This document shows positions 9,564 through 55,175 of a stretch of DNA of 64,000 nucleotides, piece by piece (the first letter of the stretch is position 1; each line of letters begins with the position of its first letter). Source of the DNA: Candidatus Cloacimonadota bacterium (GTDB taxonomy: Bacteria > Cloacimonadota > Cloacimonadia > G963667145). Below the pieces are notes generated by a model, which saw only the letters and a list, made by a program, of their open reading frames with translations, was not told the origin of the DNA and ran no database searches. The stretch spans positions 337,459 through 401,458 of the forward strand of contig OY762943.1 in the NCBI GenBank assembly GCA_963667145.1, written 5' to 3'. A program made the position numbers and the translations under genes.

Positions 9564-10283
9564 TTAAAGAAATTCGCCCTCGTAAACCTCTTTAACTGGA
9601 GGAAAATATTGCTTAGTATTTTTCATTATCTGCCTAGTTTTCACATAGACTCTTTTTCCTTCGGACATAAAGTAATACTTAATTTTATAGTTAGTCATCT
9701 TCAGTAAAATATCTGTGAAGTAGTTTTCGTTTGAGGCAGTTTCTTTAAATCTTTTATTGTTATAACAAGTTAGCCAAAAAATATGAAACTTTTTTAATTG
9801 TATATATGGTACATCACCAAAGTAATAGGTTTCATAATCTTCATCTTGTGCTATTTTTTGAAAATCTTCCGACTTTAACCATTTATTAGTCCAGCGTTCT
9901 GTTTTAGAATCATAAACAGGACCATAAACTCTGCTACCAACAACAAAATATAGCCAATTCATTGTATATAATGCGTATACACCTTTGGTACGTAATTCGT
10001 GTTTATCAAAAGTAAAAGTTTCGCTTTTGGGAAACTCCATATCATACAATCTTCCAACTTCTTTGTTATCAATCAAATTAAGAGGCTTATTTTTCATCAT
10101 TTTCCCATAAGCTTCTCCATATTTTTTGTCATCACTATCCAAAAAAATGTTAAAAGAATTGTAATCTTCTTTCACGCTCTCTTTAATAGTTTCTTGCTTC
10201 GAATCTTTTTTTGTGGTATTCACGCCAAAACAAAAAGTAAAAGAAAAAATCAAACAAATGAAAATTAAAAATCTAACTAACAT
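9564..10283 (-). CDS. hypothetical secreted protein
   Basis: N-terminal signal-peptide-like hydrophobic segment (MLVRFLIFICLIFSFTFCFG). No recognisable domain. Confidence 0.5.
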   Translation of the reverse strand: MLVRFLIFICLIFSFTFCFGVNTTKKDSKQETIKESVKEDYNSFNIFLDSDDKKYGEAYGKMMKNKPLNLIDNKEVGRLYDMEFPKSETFTFDKHELRTKGVYALYTMNWLYFVVGSRVYGPVYDSKTERWTNKWLKSEDFQKIAQDEDYETYYFGDVPYIQLKKFHIFWLTCYNNKRFKETASNENYFTDILLKMTNYKIKYYFMSEGKRVYVKTRQIMKNTKQYFPPVKEVYEGEFL

Positions 10284-11137: not shown

Positions 11138-11196
11138 AGTTAGTTAACTCTCCCAAAATGCAATAGTTAATTTTAGTCAATTAGCAAAAAAAAATT

Positions 11197-11598
11197 TTAG
11201 TTTGCCTCAACCTGATTTAAAATACCGTTAATAAACTTCCCCGAAGATGTAGAGGAAAAAACTTTGGCAATCTCCAAAGCCTCGTTAATTACAACGGCTC
11301 GCGGTACGTTAGTGTGCAAAATTTCAAAAATTCCAACCCTCAGCAAAGCCTTGTCCACAGGCGAAATCCTAGAAAATTCCCAGTTCTTCGATTTTGTAAT
11401 TATTATTCTATCAATCTGTTCTAAGTTGCCCAAAACTCCAGAAACTAACTCTTTGGCAAATAAATAAATAGAATTATTTGTTGCCAGTTGTTCGTCCTCA
11501 CCTATCTGCTCCAAAGTGTCAAAAACCCTTTGCTCGTCATAATCGTCGCCGTACAATGCCTGCATAGCAATTTCCCGACCCTTTCTTCTTAAACCCAT
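11197..11598 (-). CDS. nusB: transcription antitermination factor NusB
   Basis: 133 aa with N-terminal RKGREIAMQALY, typical of NusB. Confidence 0.85.
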   Translation of the reverse strand: MGLRRKGREIAMQALYGDDYDEQRVFDTLEQIGEDEQLATNNSIYLFAKELVSGVLGNLEQIDRIIITKSKNWEFSRISPVDKALLRVGIFEILHTNVPRAVVINEALEIAKVFSSTSSGKFINGILNQVEAN

Positions 11599-11716
11599 AT
11601 TTCAAAGTTCCTAAAAATATAATTACAAAGCTTTTCTTATTCGAATTAGTTCTGACAAAAGTTTCATCTAAATCCTATTTGACAAGATTTTTTTGTCTTC
11701 TTGTCATATTTTGTAG

Positions 11717-48574: not shown

Positions 48575-48740
48575 ACGCTCACAAAGAAATGAATAACGCT
48601 GTTATTAGTCAATAAATTATCCGTGGTAAATTTATTTGGAATTTGTCTTTATGATGGCTTTTTGAATTCACTCAATCATTATTCAACTATATTTTCGCTA
48701 GCGTAAAACAATTGATAGTTCCCTATCCCAACCAATTATA

Positions 48741-48900
48741 GATTCCCGCGTTTCAAGCACAATAGTACTAAGCAACAGATTAACGTTGTGCTTGATAGAC
48801 TGCGGGAATGAGGGTGCTTTGGACTTCCTGCTCTCATACTCACGCAAGTGGGTGTCCATCTTCTTGCTTCTCTATTCCTCATGCTTGCGAAAACGGTTAT
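48741..48900. repeat. repeat module A1/B1: nested palindrome (TCCCGCG...CGCGGGAATGAGG) followed by a B unit of about 80 nt
   Basis: GATTCCCGCG-(inner IR CAAGCACAA..TTGTGCTTG)-TGCGGGAATGAGG, then GTGCTTTGGACTTCCTGCTCTCATACTCACGCAAGTGGGTGTCCATCT. Copies A2/B2, A3/B3 and A4 occur elsewhere in the flanks. Confidence 0.7.
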
Positions 48901-48911
48901 CCATTTTTGAT

Positions 48912-49215
48912 GTTCATTTTTTTGCCGGAAAAAAACGAACCAAAAAACCTCCTTTTGTCATAAAATCGCTAAAACAGGGTCGTGAGATGCAGTGGTGCTG
49001 ACTCTGAGTAGAGACACCTCCGAGTAAACGACTATCCTCTGCTTCTCATAAATCACTTTTGCAATTCTCTAATGATGCTATGTTGTTAGCTAAATTATGC
49101 CAAAAGTCAAGCCCAGCTCAACCCAAAGAGTGCTTCACTCGGGGTGGGGTGGCTACAAATCCTTCAAGTCGAGCCTCGTGAAAATAGAAAACGACTGAAG
49201 TTAATTATTGTGCGA
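48912..49215. repeat. repeat module X1+Y1 (about 300 nt), direct repeat of 54494..54965
   Basis: TCATTTTTTTGCCGGAAAAAAACGAACCAAAAAACCTCCTTTTGTCATAAAATCGCTAAAACAG...GTGCTTCACTCGGGGTGGGGTGGC|TACAAATCC...GAAAATAGAAAACGACTGAAGT is shared with the right flank, identity about 75-95% per segment. Confidence 0.75.
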
Positions 49216-49326
49216 TACCTGTCGTCTCTTGCAGAATTTCTAATCTGACTTCACAGGTTGAGCTTACAATAATGCGAAGGAGTTGAATATTTTAGAGGTG
49301 AGACTTTGGATTTTGAATTTACCTTT

Positions 49327-49361
49327 GGTTCTTTCGCTTTGGTCACACAAAGGGAAAGAAC
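49327..49361. repeat. conserved hairpin module Z1 (GGTTCTTTCGCTTTG-GTCACAC-AAAGGGAAAGAAC)
   Basis: Imperfect stem of about 13 bp. An identical copy lies at 54650..54684, with the same 5' context GAATTTACCTTT. Confidence 0.7.
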
Positions 49362-49368
49362 ATAAAAT

Positions 49369-49500
49369 GGATTCCCGTTTTCACGGGAATGAGGGAAAAA
49401 AGCGAAAATGAGGATGATTGGGCTTCCTGCCCTCATACTCACGTAAGTGGGTATCTATCTCCCTGTTTCTCTACGCCTCATACTCACTGTCTATCAAGCA
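49369..49500. repeat. repeat module A2/B2
   Basis: GGATTCCCGTTTTCACGGGAATGAGG followed by GGCTTCCTGCCCTCATACTCACGTAAGTGGGTATCTATCTCC, about 80% identical to B1. Confidence 0.7.
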
Positions 49501-49777
49501 CAACTCTTTAACTTCTCCATCTTGCTTTTGTGCTTGGGGTGGATAAACTCTGAACACCAAAGAGGAGCAGTCTTAAATATCCATCTATGAAATGCAAAGC
49601 CAACTTATTGCAATAGCTAAACTTGAAGAGTACACGGGAGCATGCTGTACTTGATTCTCTGCTGGCGACTCGCAACGACTGCTACTATGTGGGCAGAGCG
49701 GTTTTTTCTTTCCCTCCTCTTTCTTTTTGAGCGGTCAAAAAGTAAAGAGGAGACTCTCTGTAAGAGAACATCCCAGC

Positions 49778-49870
49778 CACTGCCCTTGCTGGATTCCCGC
49801 GTCCGCGGGAATGAGGAGGGAAGGAGCGGGAATGGGGCGTGCTTTGGGGCTTCCTGCCCTCTTACCTCAT
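49778..49870. repeat. repeat module A3/B3 (GC-rich)
   Basis: GGATTCCCGCGTCCGCGGGAATGAGG, a second partial GAGCGGGAATGGGG, then GTGCTTTGGGGCTTCCTGCCCTC. Followed at 49880..49930 by an imperfect long palindrome CTGCGGAG..GTGTCC/GGACAC..CTCCGCAG. Confidence 0.65.
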
Positions 49871-49947
49871 GCCTGCGGAGGCGGTGTCCAGTTGGGTGAC
49901 AGATGGGGACACTCCGCAGCTCCTCACTCTCGTGCAGGCGACTGCAC

Positions 49948-49980
49948 AAAAAAATGGCACACCTTCAATAAAAGTGTGCC
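49948..49980 (-). terminator. intrinsic terminator of the lectin/LRR gene
   Basis: Minus-strand reading: GGCACAC-TTTTATTGAA-GGTGTGCC followed by ATTTTTTT, about 25 nt after the stop codon. Confidence 0.7.
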
Positions 49981-50002
49981 TTAAAAACAAGTATTATATA
50001 AT

Positions 50003-53000
50003 TTAATTAGTATTATAAATTCTACAACTTGGAAAAATTGCTTTAATACGAGCAACTTCTTCTGAGCTTATTTGATTATTATAACAATATAACCAAGTCA
50101 AATTAGTACATTTTTCTAATCCTACTAAGCTGGTGAGTTTATTATAAGAACAAGATAAAGTATTCAAATTAGTACATTTTTCTAATCCTACTAAGCTGGT
50201 GAGTTGATTATTATAACAATATAAAGTATTCAAATTAGTACATTTTTCTAATCCTACTAAGCTGGTGAGTTGATTATTATAACAATATAAAGTATTCAAA
50301 TTAGTACAATTTTCTAATCCTGTTAGGCTGGTAAGTTGATTAGCATTACAATCTAACACCCTTAATTTAGTACAATTCTCTAATTTTTCTAAACTTGTAA
50401 GCCGGTTATCTGAGCACTGTAAAAAATCTAGTATAGTACAATTATCTAATCCTTTTAAATTTGTAAGCTGGTTAGAATAACAATATAAGAAGCGCAAAAA
50501 CGTACAATTTTCTATTCCTTCTAAACTCGTTATTTGGTTGTCATGGCATTTTAAAAACCGCAAATTAGTACAATTTTCTAATCCTGTTAGGCTGGTGAGT
50601 TGATTCCTATAACACTCTAACTTATTCAAATTAGTACAATTTTCTAAAGCTGTTAGGTTGGTGAGTTGATTACCATCACAATATAAACTATACAAATTAG
50701 TACAATTTTCTAATTCTGTTAGGCTAGTGAGTTGATTACTATAACAAGCTAAATAAGTCAAATTAGTACAATTTTCTAATCCTGTTAGGATAGTGAGTTG
50801 ATTATGAGAACAATCTAACTCAGACAATTTAGTACAATTTTCTATCCCTGTTAGGCTAGTGAGTTGATTATTATGACACCATAAAGTAGTCAAATTTGTT
50901 AAATTTTCTATCCCTGATAGACTGGTGAGTTGATTATTATTACCACAATGTAAATAAGTCAAATTTGTTAAATTTTCTATCCCTGATAGGCTGGTGAGTT
51001 GATTATTATGACACCATAAAGTAGTCAAATTTGTTAAATTTTCTAATCCTACTAAGCTGGTGAGTTTATTATTATAGCACCATATAGAAGTCAAATTTGT
51101 TAAATGTTTAAGTCCAGAAAGATTGCTTAAACTAAAGTCACCTAAAGAAATCTCTTTTCTATTGAAAATTTCTTTTATTTTTTCATCACTTGGCTTGTTA
51201 GTATTTTTTGACAACCATAATACTTTATATTTAAAAGCTCTTTTCCATTGGTCTTCCAAGCTATCCCACCAATTACTTCTTCTTTGCACACCTAAGTCTC
51301 CATCCACCAAATGCCACTCTGCTCCGTGAAAGTTAGTATTGGTATCGATATCTTTTTCACTATTCCACTCACAAATAAAAGGTAGTTTTCCATTTCCACC
51401 GTCGTTCCAAGTGCCATCAGAATAGAAAAAGGCATAATCTTCGTCTCCACCATAGTTATTTGGTTCGCCCTTGCTCCAGTTGGCATAGTAGCGGTCTTCT
51501 CCGCTTGCCCATTTCCAAGTACCTTCTGTCTCAGTATCACTGGCTCCCATCCAGCATAGAGGACTGCCATTAGGAACTAAGACATCTTTATAAATAGTAT
51601 TTTGTTCTTCTTGAGAGCTTACGCTTACCAAATATCCACCAATTTTTTCGCAATAGGCTTTAGCTTCTTCCCAAGTCATTTCTGTTGAAAAATATTTATA
51701 AATATGTTTTGTTGGCTCTTTTATATCATCTTTACTATTCCATTCGCAAATAAAGGGCAATATTCCCATGCCTCCGTCATTCCAAGAACCGTTGGAATAT
51801 AATAACATAAAGTTTTCGCCATCGCCACTATTGTTTGGCTCACCAAAATTCCAATTACTATACTTCCATTTCTCTCCACTTACCCATTGCCAATCATCTT
51901 CTTTTTTGTAGTCGTTTGCTCCACCCCAACATTCAGGGCTACCATTGGAAACCATTACATTTTGATAGATATATTCTTGTTCCACCTGAGAAGTTATACT
52001 TGCCAAATATCCGCCTCTGCTTTCGCAATAGCTTTTGGCAGCTGCCCATGTCATCGGCTCTGAGATATATTTATACACATGCCCTTCAGGATTAAGCTTT
52101 ACCTCTGCCTGACTATTCCACTCACAGATAAAAGGCAAATTCTTTTCGGCTACATCATTCCAAGAACCATCGGGATAAAAAGATACATAGTTTTCAATTC
52201 CTGCACTATTACTCGGCTCACCCCTGCTCCAATTGCTGTAATAGCAATCTTCTCCACTTGTCCATTTCCAATTGTTTTCTTTCTCTTCGTCAGATGCTCC
52301 AAGCCAGCACTCTGGAGTACCGTTAGGAATAAGGTAGTTATTATAGATTTTATATTGCTCTTCACTGCTATTTACACTTACCAAATATCCGCCTATTCTT
52401 TCGCAATAAGCCTTAGCTTCAGCCCAAGTCATTTTTTCTGAAATATATTTGTAAACATGGTCAGTGTATTCTTTAATATCATCTTTACTATTCCATTCAC
52501 AAACGAAAGGTAAAAGCCCATAAGCTCCGTCGCTCCAAGTATTGCCCGAGTTAAAAAACATAAAATCTTGATTATTGCTATTGTCAGGCTCACCTTTCAT
52601 CCATTTTTCATATTCCCATTTTTCTCCGCTTACCCATTGCCAATGATTTTCATTTTTGTAATCACTTGCTCCGCCCCAACACAGAGGAGATCCATTGGGA
52701 ACTAAATAATTTTCAAAGATATATTCTTGTTCTATTTGAGTAGTTACACTAACCAAATATCCGCCTCTGCTTTCGCAATAAGTTTTGGCGGCTGCCCAAG
52801 TCATGGCTTTCGGGATATATTCATATACATGTCCGGTTGGATTGAGAATGTCTTCTTTACTATTCCACTCACAAATAAATGGCAGTCTTCCCTTGCCTCC
52901 GTCGTTCCAAGAACCGTCAGAATAGAAAAAAGCATAATCTTCGTCTCCGCCATAGTTATTAGGTTCGTTTTTGCTCCAATTGGAGTAGTAAAAACCTTCG

Positions 53001-54109
53001 CCGTTTGCCCATTTCCAATCTCCTTCCTTTTCTCCGTCACTTGCACCCATCCAGCAATTTGGATTGCCATTAGGTGCTAAAACATTGGTATAGACAAGAT
53101 TTTGTTCTTCTTGAGAAGTCACACTTACCAAATATCCACCTACGCTTTCACAATAGGCTTTAGCTTCTTCCCAAGTCATTTTTGTTGGAATATATTTGTA
53201 AATATGCTCTGTTGCTTCTTTAATATCTGCTTCTTTGTTCCACTCGCAAACAAATGGCAAAAGTCCATATCCTCCATCGCTCCAAGTATTGCCCGAGTTA
53301 AAAAACATAAAATCTTGACCACCGCTATTATCAGGTTCACCCGGATACCACTTAGTATAATCCCACTTTTCTCCACTTACCCATTCCCATTTGTCTTCTT
53401 TTTTGTAGTCGCTTGCTCCACCCCAACTTAGAGGGGTGCCGTTGGGAGCCAAATAATTGTGATATATATATTCTTGCTCTGTTTGAGAAGTCACACAAGC
53501 CAAATATCCGCCCATTCTTTCGCAATATGTTTTGGCGGCTGCCCAAGTCATGGCTTTGGAAATATATTTATAAACATGTTTTGCAGATTCTTTTATGTCA
53601 GCTTCGCTATTCCATTCGCATATAAAGTAAAACCTTCCCGCATTGCCATCGCCATCAAACCATTTGCCATTGGGAAGTGTAGCCAAATGGTCTTCATCGC
53701 CTGTACCTCCGCCATTGTTAGGTTCACCATCTGCCCAGTTAGTATAAGAGTCCAACTTTGTTCCATCTAACCATTCCCAAATAGCATCATTGTTGGTGTT
53801 AATTCCACCTATCCAACATGCAGGGCTACCACCTGGAACAATTACACTGTCATAAATATAATTTTGTTCTTCTTGGGAGTTTATACAAGCTAAATATCCA
53901 CCCATGCTTTCACAATAAGCTTTAGCTTCCTCCCATGATAGTGGCAGTTTTACCAGCTTATATACATGGGGATTCTGTGCAGTGGTTGATAATTGTACAT
54001 CATTCGATGTAGCGTCAGGTTTTGCGTGTTCTGTGGTTGGCAATGAGCAGGCATAGAAAATAATTACTGCAACTAACACGACTAATACGTTGAATAACTG
54101 TTTTTTCAT
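50003..54109 (-). CDS. giant secreted/lipoprotein-like protein with 7 tandem C-type lectin (CTLD/CRD) domains and about 19 C-terminal leucine-rich repeats
   Basis: Signal peptide MKKQLFNVLVVLVAVIIFYAC. Seven repeats of about 125 aa with the canonical CTLD pattern W.EAK.YCE..GGYL....S..EQ.YI...CW.G..D......W.W..GE...Y.NW..GEP(N/D/S)N......F......WND.....LPFICEW. Then 22-aa LRRs (NQLTSLxGLENCTNLxxLxCxx). SD AAGGAGG lies 8 nt upstream of the ATG. Confidence 0.85.
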   Translation of the reverse strand: MKKQLFNVLVVLVAVIIFYACSLPTTEHAKPDATSNDVQLSTTAQNPHVYKLVKLPLSWEEAKAYCESMGGYLACINSQEEQNYIYDSVIVPGGSPACWIGGINTNNDAIWEWLDGTKLDSYTNWADGEPNNGGGTGDEDHLATLPNGKWFDGDGNAGRFYFICEWNSEADIKESAKHVYKYISKAMTWAAAKTYCERMGGYLACVTSQTEQEYIYHNYLAPNGTPLSWGGASDYKKEDKWEWVSGEKWDYTKWYPGEPDNSGGQDFMFFNSGNTWSDGGYGLLPFVCEWNKEADIKEATEHIYKYIPTKMTWEEAKAYCESVGGYLVSVTSQEEQNLVYTNVLAPNGNPNCWMGASDGEKEGDWKWANGEGFYYSNWSKNEPNNYGGDEDYAFFYSDGSWNDGGKGRLPFICEWNSKEDILNPTGHVYEYIPKAMTWAAAKTYCESRGGYLVSVTTQIEQEYIFENYLVPNGSPLCWGGASDYKNENHWQWVSGEKWEYEKWMKGEPDNSNNQDFMFFNSGNTWSDGAYGLLPFVCEWNSKDDIKEYTDHVYKYISEKMTWAEAKAYCERIGGYLVSVNSSEEQYKIYNNYLIPNGTPECWLGASDEEKENNWKWTSGEDCYYSNWSRGEPSNSAGIENYVSFYPDGSWNDVAEKNLPFICEWNSQAEVKLNPEGHVYKYISEPMTWAAAKSYCESRGGYLASITSQVEQEYIYQNVMVSNGSPECWGGANDYKKEDDWQWVSGEKWKYSNWNFGEPNNSGDGENFMLLYSNGSWNDGGMGILPFICEWNSKDDIKEPTKHIYKYFSTEMTWEEAKAYCEKIGGYLVSVSSQEEQNTIYKDVLVPNGSPLCWMGASDTETEGTWKWASGEDRYYANWSKGEPNNYGGDEDYAFFYSDGTWNDGGNGKLPFICEWNSEKDIDTNTNFHGAEWHLVDGDLGVQRRSNWWDSLEDQWKRAFKYKVLWLSKNTNKPSDEKIKEIFNRKEISLGDFSLSNLSGLKHLTNLTSIWCYNNKLTSLVGLENLTNLTTLWCHNNQLTSLSGIENLTNLTYLHCGNNNQLTSLSGIENLTNLTTLWCHNNQLTSLTGIENCTKLSELDCSHNQLTILTGLENCTNLTYLACYSNQLTSLTELENCTNLYSLYCDGNQLTNLTALENCTNLNKLECYRNQLTSLTGLENCTNLRFLKCHDNQITSLEGIENCTFLRFLYCYSNQLTNLKGLDNCTILDFLQCSDNRLTSLEKLENCTKLRVLDCNANQLTSLTGLENCTNLNTLYCYNNQLTSLVGLEKCTNLNTLYCYNNQLTSLVGLEKCTNLNTLSCSYNKLTSLVGLEKCTNLTWLYCYNNQISSEEVARIKAIFPSCRIYNTN
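50130..50393. repeat. near-identical 66-bp tandem repeats inside the LRR-coding region
   Basis: Units start at 50130, 50196, 50262 and 50328 (CTGGTGAGTTGATTATTATAACAATATAAAGTATTCAAATTAGTACATTTTTCTAATCCTACTAAG), with 0-4 mismatches between neighbours. Further, more diverged copies run to about 51100. Confidence 0.85.
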
Positions 54110-54224
54110 TTATTCTTCCTCCTTGTTTTTAATTTCTAAACACAAAAAAAAGACCGCCCAACCGCATTGAACTGTCTCTCAAACTACATAAATTTTGTTG
54201 ACCTGTTAAACCACAGGCATCTTT

Positions 54225-54260
54225 GACTGACTGACTGACTGACTGACTGACTGACTGACT
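54225..54260. repeat. (GACT)9 tetranucleotide microsatellite in the lectin gene upstream region
   Basis: Nine perfect GACT units (AGTC on the coding strand), 116-151 nt upstream of the start codon at 54109. TTGACA-like hexamers lie just distal to it on the coding strand. Confidence 0.95.
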
Positions 54261-54413
54261 ATTCTATTCATTTTCATAAGCCTTAAGAATATGAAGTCAA
54301 ACAGATGTCAAATACTTTTTATGCTTCTAAGCACAATGCCGTCTCTCTATATTCTCATCCTCGCGAAAGCGGGGAACCATTCTCCTTTTCGTGCTATCCT
54401 TACTAAACCAACT

Positions 54414-54440
54414 GGATGCCCGTTTACACGGGCATGAGGA
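54414..54440. repeat. repeat module A4 (GGATGCCCGTTTACACGGGCATGAGG)
   Basis: Same palindrome-plus-ATGAGG architecture as A1-A3, with compensatory changes in the stem (TCCCG/CGGGA becomes GCCCG/CGGGC). Confidence 0.65.
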
Positions 54441-54493
54441 TTAGAAAAACAGGAAGCACAAGCACTCCTCATTCTCGCGGAAGCAGGGATTTA

Positions 54494-54590
54494 CAAGCCC
54501 AAAAAGTGCTTCGCTTGGGGTGGCTACAAATCCATCAAGTTGAGCCTCGTAAAAATAGAAAACGACTGAAGTCAATTGTTGTGCGTCTGA
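54494..54590. repeat. repeat modules X'(3' end of X)+Y2
   Basis: CAAGCCCAAAAAGTGCTTCGCTTGGGGTGGC|TACAAATCCATCAAGTTGAGCCTCGTAAAAATAGAAAACGACTGAAGTCAATTGTTGTGCG matches 49110..49215. Confidence 0.75.
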
Positions 54591-54633
54591 CCACTAAAAT
54601 AAAGCTAATCTTTGAGACTATATTTTAGTGGTC
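54589..54633. repeat. perfect 13-bp inverted repeat hairpin
   Basis: GACCACTAAAATA-(19-nt loop)-TATTTTAGTGGTC. No adjacent U-tract on either strand. Confidence 0.8.
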
Positions 54634-54649
54634 AGATGAATTTACCTTT

Positions 54650-54684
54650 GGTTCTTTCGCTTTGGTCACACAAAGGGAAAGAAC
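54650..54684. repeat. hairpin module Z2 (identical to Z1)
   Basis: GGTTCTTTCGCTTTGGTCACACAAAGGGAAAGAAC, identical to 49327..49361. Confidence 0.75.
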
Positions 54685-54722
54685 ATAAAAGTGAATTACC
54701 TCTTTTGTGAGAAGGAGTTTAT

Positions 54723-54965
54723 GCTCATTTTTTTGCCGGGAAAAAACGAACCAAAAAACCTCCTTTTGTCATAAAATCGCTAAAACAGTGACGTGAGATG
54801 AAATAATGCTAACCATGAATAGAAACATCTCCGAGTAAATGACTATCACCTGCTTCCCACAATCCACTTTTACACTTTCTCAATTATGCCACTGCCGTTT
54901 TACTAAATTATGACAAAAGTCATGCCCAACCTTCCCAAAGTGTGCTTCGCTTAGGGTAGGGTGGC
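54723..54965. repeat. repeat module X2 (full-length copy of X1)
   Basis: TCATTTTTTTGCCGGGAAAAAACGAACCAAAAAACCTCCTTTTGTCATAAAATCGCTAAAACAG...AAAGTGTGCTTCGCTTAGGGTAGGGTGGC. Aligns end-to-end with 48912..49153. The first 70 nt are about 97% identical and the rest about 70%. Confidence 0.75.
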
Positions 54966-55175
54966 ATTCTTCCGACACAACAAAAGCATAAACATAAACC
55001 AATCTCCCAAAGACATGTAAAATCAGAAATAACAAATTATAAAGATAGTCGTACATCGGAAACGACCCACACTTACTTCTCACAGGTTTCGCGAAGCTGT
55101 TTATGCTATTTGTGGCGAAGAAAACCTTTCTCTTGGTTACTTCTATTTCGGTTACGAAAGAGAAGTGACACCTAA

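Follow-up and report, generated by a model that had tools for sequence, protein, structure and literature searches.

How a perfect run of nine tetranucleotide units might act on the large surface-protein gene behind it is the question raised by this locus of a Candidatus Cloacimonadota bacterium, which we analysed within a stretch of 64 kb (below, the window). To our knowledge, nearly all documented cases of simple-repeat phase variation come from animal pathogens and commensals that are in culture. The present candidate belongs to a lineage that has not been cultured and has a genome of ~1.5 Mb, and it precedes a gene for a protein composed of animal-like C-type lectin and leucine-rich repeat modules. 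Our preferred reading, to which we assign a probability of about one half, is that the tract is a slippage-prone repeat within a short leader ORF, placed between a promoter and an intrinsic-terminator-like hairpin, and acts as an attenuation switch of the type described for the pil1 pilus locus of Streptococcus gallolyticus (Danne et al., 2014; PMC3894217).

The tract and the gene behind it are located as follows:

54225-54260, minus strand: repeat tract, (AGTC)9 on the coding strand, detected by Tandem Repeats Finder and by regular expressions; its homologue in the strain L155 (10058-10109) has 13 units.
54118-54124, minus strand: strong ribosome-binding site (RBS) AAGGAGG, which precedes the ATG of the lectin gene by 8 nt.
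50003-54109, minus strand: lectin cargo gene, encoding a 1368-aa lipoprotein with a signal peptide and Pfam domains.

On the plus strand the tract reads TTT(GACT)9ATTC, without degenerate units at either end, and Tandem Repeats Finder reports it at 54224-54260 with period 4, 9.2 copies and 100% matches, in agreement with the perfect nine-unit repeat of the original prediction. That prediction had also called the tract improbable by chance, and the expectation for a (GACT)9-like tract is indeed about 2e-14 by an order-0 estimate. In a census of perfect repeats with units of 1-6 nt, conducted by regular expressions over the whole 64-kb window, tetranucleotide tracts other than (GACT)9 never exceed 3 units, the longest homopolymers measure 9 nt, and the longest dinucleotide tract has 5 units. 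The census thus bears out the view of the tract as the only long simple sequence repeat in the window, to which we add a minisatellite (66 bp, 15.5 copies) inside the lectin gene. The same holds for related loci that together exceed 60 kb (L001 and L155-L158), where tetranucleotide tracts of at least 4 units are absent except for the homologous tract in L155. (GACT)9 is therefore the kind of long, pure, short-unit tract, far beyond background, that distinguishes contingency loci. A sequencing artefact as the source of the tract was dismissed on the grounds of the unique sequence around it and its recurrence at another length in an independent assembly.

The gene downstream proved to be the large surface lectin that had been anticipated. 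Its 1368-aa ORF has a sole start codon at 54109 (minus strand) with an in-frame TAA directly upstream, and the predicted distance of 116-151 nt between the tract and the ATG stands. The protein has a signal peptide of the lipoprotein type that ends in FYAC (…IIFYAC), and Pfam assigns to it 7 C-type lectin domains together with ~16 leucine-rich repeats, each of 22 aa. Lipoproteins with lectin and leucine-rich repeat domains belong to a gene class commonly under phase variation; by gene content, the tract precedes a surface or host-interaction gene as contingency tracts do, and it presumably controls this gene. Besides the protein itself and one paralog, the best matches are lectin-domain proteins with at most 40% identity, including animal mannose receptors. 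The paralog (P0002, 1114 aa) is encoded outside the window on the same contig of 1,539,614 bp; its first 31 residues, comprising the signal peptide, are identical to those of the lectin protein, the identity over the first 675 residues is 76%, and lectin domains are followed by a C-terminal FGE-sulfatase-type domain. P0002 may have its own copy of the switch module described below. The minisatellite (50072-51097) is in-frame and encodes the 22-aa leucine-rich repeats. Its last three copies (…LVGLEKCTNLNTLYCYNNQLTS) are nearly identical, which suggests that units were gained recently and that the lectin protein can also vary in length by a second route, in-frame.

The lectin gene is part of a variable region:

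48637-55173, no strand: variable island from the moeA stop to the nif3 promoter, absent in L001 and with other cargo in L155.

In the nearest genome of the species collection, a Candidatus Cloacimonadota chromosome (L001) with a MoeA protein of 80% identity, moeA is directly followed by nif3, and the region 48637-55173 is therefore an inserted, variable island. The spacer between moeA and nif3 measures ~70 nt in L001 (about 11174-11240), 6.5 kb in the window and 5.3 kb in L155 (9855-15199), and homology breaks off precisely at the moeA stop on one side and shortly before the nif3 -35 element on the other. On this three-genome comparison, the moeA-nif3 spacer is a strain-variable, recombination hot spot.

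The island is rich in repeats of other kinds. The lectin gene lies between mosaic direct repeats in permuted order (48907-49376 and 54498-54965), namely the pairs 48907-49078/54718-54889 (83%), 49145-49214/54516-54585 (93%) and 49314-49367/54637-54690, the latter being a 54-nt block of 100% identity with its own hairpin inside. Further copies of these flanking repeats are absent from the rest of the window, and a scan of viral contigs with the 34-nt core of the 54-nt repeat returned zero matches. In the window, but not in L155, about 690 bp of repeat material (54484-55173) is interposed between moeA and the switch module. Hairpin elements resembling REPs, of the form CCTCATTCCCGCG....CGGGAATCC, are observed at 48740-48813, 49370-49394, 49790-49875 and 54356-54490; they cluster in the island flanks only (8 matches vs 1.8 expected, 7 of the 8 in the island), some of them lie within a repeated unit of ~80 nt, and a part is kept in L155 upstream of the -35 block.

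The strain L155, a contig of ENA assembly ERZ21831251, was found as the second member of the MoeA protein cluster, with 96% identity. The identity of its flanks with the window is 97.4% over 8.8 kb (2 gap bases) and 95.5% over 4.65 kb (no gaps); judged by these flanks, L155 is a sister strain of the window genome. Cluster look-ups with seven flanking proteins likewise returned just two strains of the species in the collection. The moeA-nif3 cargo of L155 is an operon of four paralogous lipoprotein genes (290, 402, 400, and 390 aa); these proteins have no Pfam match, and a profile search of the collection returned just those four. The 380 nt after moeA in L155 are homologous to 54483-54100 of the window, with 75-78% identity by blastn and 84% of aligned columns. 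Within this region, the pieces AAAAAGTATTTGACATCTGT and TATGAAAATGAATAGAATAGTC are identical, a 38-nt leader block differs by 4 transitions, the piece GTTGGGCkGTCTTTTTT has one G/T difference, and the cargo start ATGAAAAAAC is identical again, while the segments of ~21 nt between the conserved blocks retain ~50% identity (our own count from the alignment). The homology decays just past the U-run of the hairpin described below, and the RBS regions differ. The L155 tract reads AGTC AGTC GGTC AGTC GGTC (AGTC)8, so that the 13 units of L155 and the 9 units of the window are separated by an exact gap of 16 nt between perfectly conserved flanks. Because this exact gap lies within conserved blocks ahead of different cargo, the tract is, on the evidence of the alignment, a retained and length-polymorphic part of a conserved regulatory module common to unrelated lipoprotein cargo. 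Variation in unit number between strains at a homologous locus, another characteristic of contingency loci, is represented here by two strains. The module is 78% identical as compared with 95-97% for the flanks, and it would be either fast-evolving or exchanged together with the cargo; the difference of four units is no rate and could have accumulated slowly.

A neutral microsatellite, produced by slippage in the non-coding DNA of a fast-evolving island and devoid of regulatory effect, would also yield such a difference: two alleles are known, that of L155 has two point interruptions as decaying microsatellites have, and the island is a recombination hot spot with abundant repeats. We consider this explanation quite improbable, since it leaves a tract that is the sole tetranucleotide tract above three units in the window and is matched by none in the related loci, that is perfectly pure in the window allele, and that has kept its position while the 21-nt segments beside the conserved blocks fell to about half identity.

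The putative promoter elements of the module, together with the nif3 promoter used for comparison, are:

54301-54320, minus strand: -35-like block AAAAAGTATTTGACATCTGT with TTGACA (54311-54306), 100% conserved in L155.
54295-54300, minus strand: second hexamer TTGACT, not conserved; L155 has TCAGCA there.
54284-54291, minus strand: candidate -10/-7-type box TATTCTTA (TATTTCTG in L155), proposed by analogy.
54257-54278, minus strand: block TATGAAAATGAATAGAATAGTC, adjoining the tract on its 5' side and fully conserved in L155, with both in-frame ATGs of the leader ORF and a TAGAAT hexamer.
48575-48640 in the window, 15200-15261 in L155, about 11240-11302 in L001: nif3 promoter, conserved in the three genomes.

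A scan for the sigma-70 consensus found no pair reaching the threshold on the coding strand of the window, and none spanning or following the tract; the single pair found in L155 is on the opposite strand upstream of the tract. Since the consensus scan gave no coding-strand pair, we used anchors from the organism itself. The FMN riboswitch (581-692) has an upstream promoter of the form TTGACA-N-TTATTCTG, and its aptamer begins 8-9 nt after the box. The nif3 promoter is organized as TTGACT-N20-TTTCTTTG-N7-ATG and has no Shine-Dalgarno sequence in its conserved promoter-ATG region, which implies a putatively leaderless or near-leaderless nif3 mRNA. The module has the same geometry as these two promoters, TTGACA-N14-TATTCTTA (TATTTCTG in L155)-N6-ATG, with the box 14 nt past TTGACA and 6 nt ahead of the first ATG of the leader ORF. 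By this analogy, transcription of the module would start at 54277 or no more than a few nt away, and the tract would occupy about +18 to +53 of the leader, downstream of the transcription start. Were TAGAAT (54266-54261) the real -10 element, the leader ATGs would stay untranscribed.

Several observations concern the wider use of these elements. The string tatTTGACA is found again at other intergenic, gene-proximal sites of the window, and several window promoters combine TTGACA/T with a T-rich box that ends in TTG 14-22 nt downstream and resembles the -7 element of Bacteroidota. The nif3 start TATGAAAATCAA is similar to the leader-ORF start TATGAAAATGAA. The module and nif3 promoters have TATGAAAAT.AA in common and a similar geometry; their alignment is weak, so a duplicate origin carries no verdict. 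On the plus strand (54223-54265), the tract begins with TTGACT and ends in TATTCT, so that on the strand opposite to the module each unit presents a cTGACT hexamer at a distance of 15 or 19 nt from a hexamer of -10 type; it is conceivable that the opposite strand of the tract holds a promoter convergent with that of the module. A 48-aa ORF (54291-54437, plus strand) follows these promoter-like elements.

Repeat-length switches that act on promoter spacing are exemplified by hifA/hifB (TA)n, porA, and nadA (TAAA)n. The original prediction had placed TTGACA and TTGACT just distal to the tract and supposed that unit number alters promoter or 5'-UTR spacing. Both hexamers are present (54311-54306 and 54300-54295), TTGACT without conservation in L155, and the tract does lie in the promoter-to-start interval, between the conserved TTGACA and the RBS of the lipoprotein gene. 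An effect of unit number on the spacing of -35 and -10 elements, or on that of an upstream site and a core promoter, could invoke these distal hexamers and, in our own reading, a weak TTAACA-N17-TAGTTT pair proximal to the tract. We nevertheless find it very unlikely: a tract of 36 nt is too long for a spacer of 16-18 nt, the candidate downstream -35 element is not conserved in L155, and a downstream promoter would start transcription at the foot of the terminator-like hairpin. With the transcription start proposed above, the position of the tract at about +18 to +53 would exclude a promoter-spacer role. The supposed change of promoter geometry was accordingly abandoned, as was a switch of the hifA/B or porA type, the tract being downstream of every candidate -35/-10 pair and no sigma-70-type promoter spanning it. 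The idea of a slipped-strand phase switch thus gains the 9 vs 13 units, as slippage yields, and loses its promoter-spacing mechanism. What remains is that the tract, a mutable element, lies in the interval from the promoter to the start codon of a gene for a surface protein, with promoter spacing not the likely mechanism.

Downstream of the proposed transcription start, the tract falls within a small ORF:

54206-54277, minus strand: small upstream ORF of 23 aa (MKMNRIVSQSVSQSVSQSKMPVV) with the whole repeat inside; stop TAA at 54208-54206.
10041-10172 in L155: counterpart of 43 aa in another frame than that of the window, with its stop in the hairpin loop.

The leader ORF has a second in-frame ATG two codons past the first one; an AAGG motif (GAGG in L155) precedes ATG1 by 3 nt and ATG2 by 9 nt, and the tract begins 17 nt after ATG1. 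The repeat is wholly inside an ATG-started ORF in both strains, and the block with the ATGs is 100% conserved. A repeat enclosed in a short ORF just downstream of the (putative) promoter and start is what defines the first part of a pil1-type switch. The stop codon of the predicted leader peptide depends on the number of units. With 9 units, as in the window (also 6 and 12), the stop is TAA 54208-54206, 25 nt before the hairpin; with 10 (also 7 and 13), it is TAA 54131-54129, past the hairpin and U-run and 5 nt before the RBS; with 8 (also 11), it is TAG 54186-54184, 3 nt before the hairpin. In L155, the 13-unit frame stops at TAG 10170-10172 inside the hairpin loop, and in the remaining two frames translation would end 5 and 3 codons past the tract. 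As in pil1-type switches, the leader stop thus shifts with the frame, from a site well ahead of the hairpin to one inside it or past it; by a rough estimate of ours, which is not a tool result, the 44 nt preceding the hairpin would have at least one open and at least one closed frame by chance about two times in three. The leader peptide has no recognisable conservation past its first 7 residues, and the substitutions between the window and L155 in the long frame (1 synonymous, 4 non-synonymous, plus a stop) are not coding-like.

Between the leader ORF and the RBS of the lectin gene, two further elements are distinguished:

54166-54203, minus strand: 38-nt leader block GGTCAACAAAATTTATGTAGTTTGAGAGACAGTTCAAT, with the 4 transitions relative to L155; it overlaps the 5' arm of the hairpin.
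54144-54180, minus strand: terminator-like hairpin (54180-54148) with U8 (54151-54144), which ends 19 nt before the RBS.

The hairpin has a folding energy of -12.4 kcal/mol (z -2.2) on the sense strand vs just -2.9 on the opposite strand, where it is weak because of its G-U pairs. L155 retains it (-10.5 kcal/mol, z -2.1), with one G-U pair replaced by A-U and the internal mismatch moved by one pair. We ranked hairpins by folding the sequence upstream of every run of at least 6 T in the window; the module hairpin takes the 4th place among the intergenic hairpin-plus-T-run features, after the terminator of the FMN riboswitch, that at the 3' end of the lectin gene, and a hairpin at 11261. A simple consensus terminator scan flagged the module hairpin in neither strain. 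A conserved, strand-specific stem-loop of terminator type is thus found between the leader ORF and the RBS of the structural gene, again as in pil1. The distance from the U-run to the RBS is ~20 nt in both strains, which leaves no room for a separate promoter of the cargo.

The hairpin at 11261 belongs to a region of separate interest. The intergenic region 11138-11716 (580 nt) has two TTGAC hexamers (11522 and 11180) and, on the minus strand at about 11261-11300, a hairpin with T6 (-12.4 kcal/mol) situated 124 nt upstream of the next gene; the region may represent a further leader attenuator, or else a transcription unit of small size.

Folded in its entirety, the leader is no more stable than shuffled sequences (z = 0.19). 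It contains no segment complementary to the repeat, which is unpaired in both the minimum-energy and the centroid fold, and a 5'-UTR repeat hairpin of the hmw type, the target of RNase III, was rejected on these grounds. An Rfam search of the leader found no family at the gathering threshold, nor at E<1 except for obvious chance matches. These results bear on two other explanations. The transcribed repeat could act as a rheostat in an untranslated 5'-UTR, its length tuning the level, stability or processing of the mRNA with no leader peptide involved. Its location downstream of the conserved -35 element and 116-151 nt before the ATG resembles that of the uspA2 tract, 132 bp upstream of its ORF (PMC7302503), and the hmw repeat is likewise transcribed in the 5'-UTR (PMC12721329); the strains also differ in unit number, as a rheostat would allow. 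The folds speak against a repeat structure like the long hmw hairpin, and the conserved ATG block and terminator-like hairpin would be left unexplained, so that we hold this mechanism to be doubtful. The second explanation, that the unit is a stand-alone small gene for a 23-43 aa peptide or a small RNA upstream of the island, with repeat changes acting on this product alone and the lectin gene reached by incidental read-through, fits the promoter-like and terminator-like ends of the unit and the loss of strain homology just after the U-run, where the RBS regions diverge. It appears unlikely in view of the lipoprotein gene that begins 35-40 nt after the U-run in both strains with no promoter space of its own, the early end of peptide conservation, and the lack of a known RNA family in the Rfam search.

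The attenuation switch that we prefer would operate as follows. Transcription would begin at or beside the ATG of the leader ORF, and a gain or loss of one 4-nt unit would shift the leader frame and so move the stop codon. Where translation stops well upstream of the hairpin (9 units, 25 nt), the hairpin would form and most transcripts would end before the lectin gene, giving a LOW state. With a stop in, past, or directly against the hairpin, the translating ribosome would block hairpin formation and transcription would reach the lectin gene, giving a HIGH state; in the window leader, this is predicted for 10, 7 and 13 units (TAA 54131-54129) and for 8 and 11 units (TAG 54186-54184). Accordingly arranged, the 9-unit allele of the window would be LOW and the 13-unit allele of L155, with its stop in the loop, HIGH, and cells of one population would be expected to switch between such states. 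The case for attenuation is made by a conjunction of features, namely the promoter geometry, the conserved ATGs, the location of the tract in the ORF, the conserved strand-specific hairpin, and the lack of a cargo promoter, and further by the retention of all module parts ahead of different cargo. The model is weakened by the small number of alleles (two), the module identity of ~78%, the non-coding-like substitutions, the weak G-U-rich hairpin, and scans that left promoter and terminator unflagged.

Searches beyond the two strains, among them exact-sequence look-ups of the lectin, MoeA and P0002 proteins, gave no further copy of the module. In more distant relatives (MoeA 80%, 61-64%, and 51%; L001 and L156-L158), the moeA-nif3 locus has neither the module nor any simple sequence repeat, and a metagenome scan with the junction AATAGAAT(AGTC)4 returned zero matches. 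The generic (AGTC)6 query retrieved at least 120 metagenome contigs (L035-L154), mostly of low coding density; from this density and the contig names, most contigs with (AGTC)>=6 appear eukaryote-like. None of the (AGTC)6 contigs is related to the island by blastn or tblastn. In a few prokaryote-like contigs, the tract precedes an ORF start by 26-190 nt, as in L109, where the ORF is an RNase E/G gene, and in L082, whose tract has 24 AGTC units; the genes adjoining these tracts show no common pattern. One relative (L156, ENA ERZ25074352 ctg21734) is a perfect fold-back in which the order moeA-nif3-… recurs in inverted orientation on the two arms, most likely a chimera of long-read assembly and not biology.

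Taken further, the promoter, the repeat-bearing leader ORF and the terminator might constitute a portable expression site at the moeA-nif3 hot spot, in which surface-lipoprotein cargo is swapped behind a stochastic switch; we put this forward tentatively, as a possibility less probable than its converse. If true, it would combine on/off phase variation with cassette replacement (a lectin/leucine-rich repeat giant vs four orphan lipoproteins), the leader ORF may be read from a leaderless mRNA, and the module would be the first attenuation-type phase switch outside Streptococcus. In the literature searched, no paper names both Cloacimonadota and phase variation, and leader-peptide/terminator phase switches turned up for S. 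gallolyticus pili only; a second, independent instance would make this design a general one and not a streptococcal curiosity. It would also flag the lineage as being under fluctuating, possibly host-imposed, surface selection. The segment 54144-54320 is the target for amplicon sequencing and reporters.

Compared with the known systems, the tract is probably an on/off switch thrown by mutation, of a kind that is rare but has been described before. Haemophilus influenzae has AGTC tracts with the identical repeat unit (in mod and in a glycosyltransferase gene of R2846), which yield a hydrophilic peptide when translated (PMC2651432); those tracts are in the 5' end of the regulated gene and work as frameshift switches, whereas the tract described here is in a separate upstream ORF. 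The (AGAT)n tract of Moraxella catarrhalis uspA2, whose unit number differs among strains and changes the mRNA level (PMC7302503), is similar as a tetranucleotide tract ~130 bp upstream of a surface-protein ORF; its effect is graded and not frame-dependent, and the same paper describes no leader ORF or terminator. The (ATCTTTC)n repeats of H. influenzae hmw1A/hmw2A, two paralogous loci with a shared regulatory region, precede large adhesin genes and form a long hairpin with a G-rich arm that is cleaved by RNase III (PMC12721329). Our tract shares with them its place in the (putatively) transcribed 5'-UTR of a large surface-protein gene; in contrast, no long repeat hairpin is predicted in the window leader.

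The closest counterpart is pil1, in which a leader-peptide ORF with 22 GCAGA repeats is followed by a stem-loop terminator upstream of pilA. A short peptide that stops 39 bp before the hairpin is associated with low expression, and with one repeat gained or lost the stop comes to lie inside the hairpin or beyond it, so that the ribosome prevents termination and expression is high, as was demonstrated experimentally; the repeat number varies between strains, and the pil3 pilus is likewise controlled by leader-peptide attenuation (PMC3894217). The two loci have the same order of elements, from the promoter through the short ORF with the whole repeat and the stem-loop terminator to the RBS of the surface-protein gene. 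In both, the unit length is indivisible by 3, the stop of the short frame precedes the hairpin by some tens of nt (39 bp in pil1 and 25 nt here), the stops of other frames are inside the hairpin or beyond it, and the unit number varies from strain to strain. They differ in that a pentanucleotide (GCAGA x 22) is replaced by a tetranucleotide (AGTC x 9 or 13), a Gram-positive pathogen by an uncultured Cloacimonadota bacterium, and a hairpin of -18.7 kcal/mol by weaker ones (-12.4 and -10.5 kcal/mol) rich in G-U pairs; in addition, the leader ORF of the present locus may be leaderless, and one module stands ahead of different cargo in two strains. Thus, four of the five defining features of the pil1 switch can be read from the DNA of this locus when the variation in repeat number between strains is counted, the fifth being the dependence of expression on translation of the leader and on the terminator. 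What this locus would add to the known design is a tetranucleotide unit in a pil1-type architecture and a single module fronting different lipoprotein cargo in two strains.
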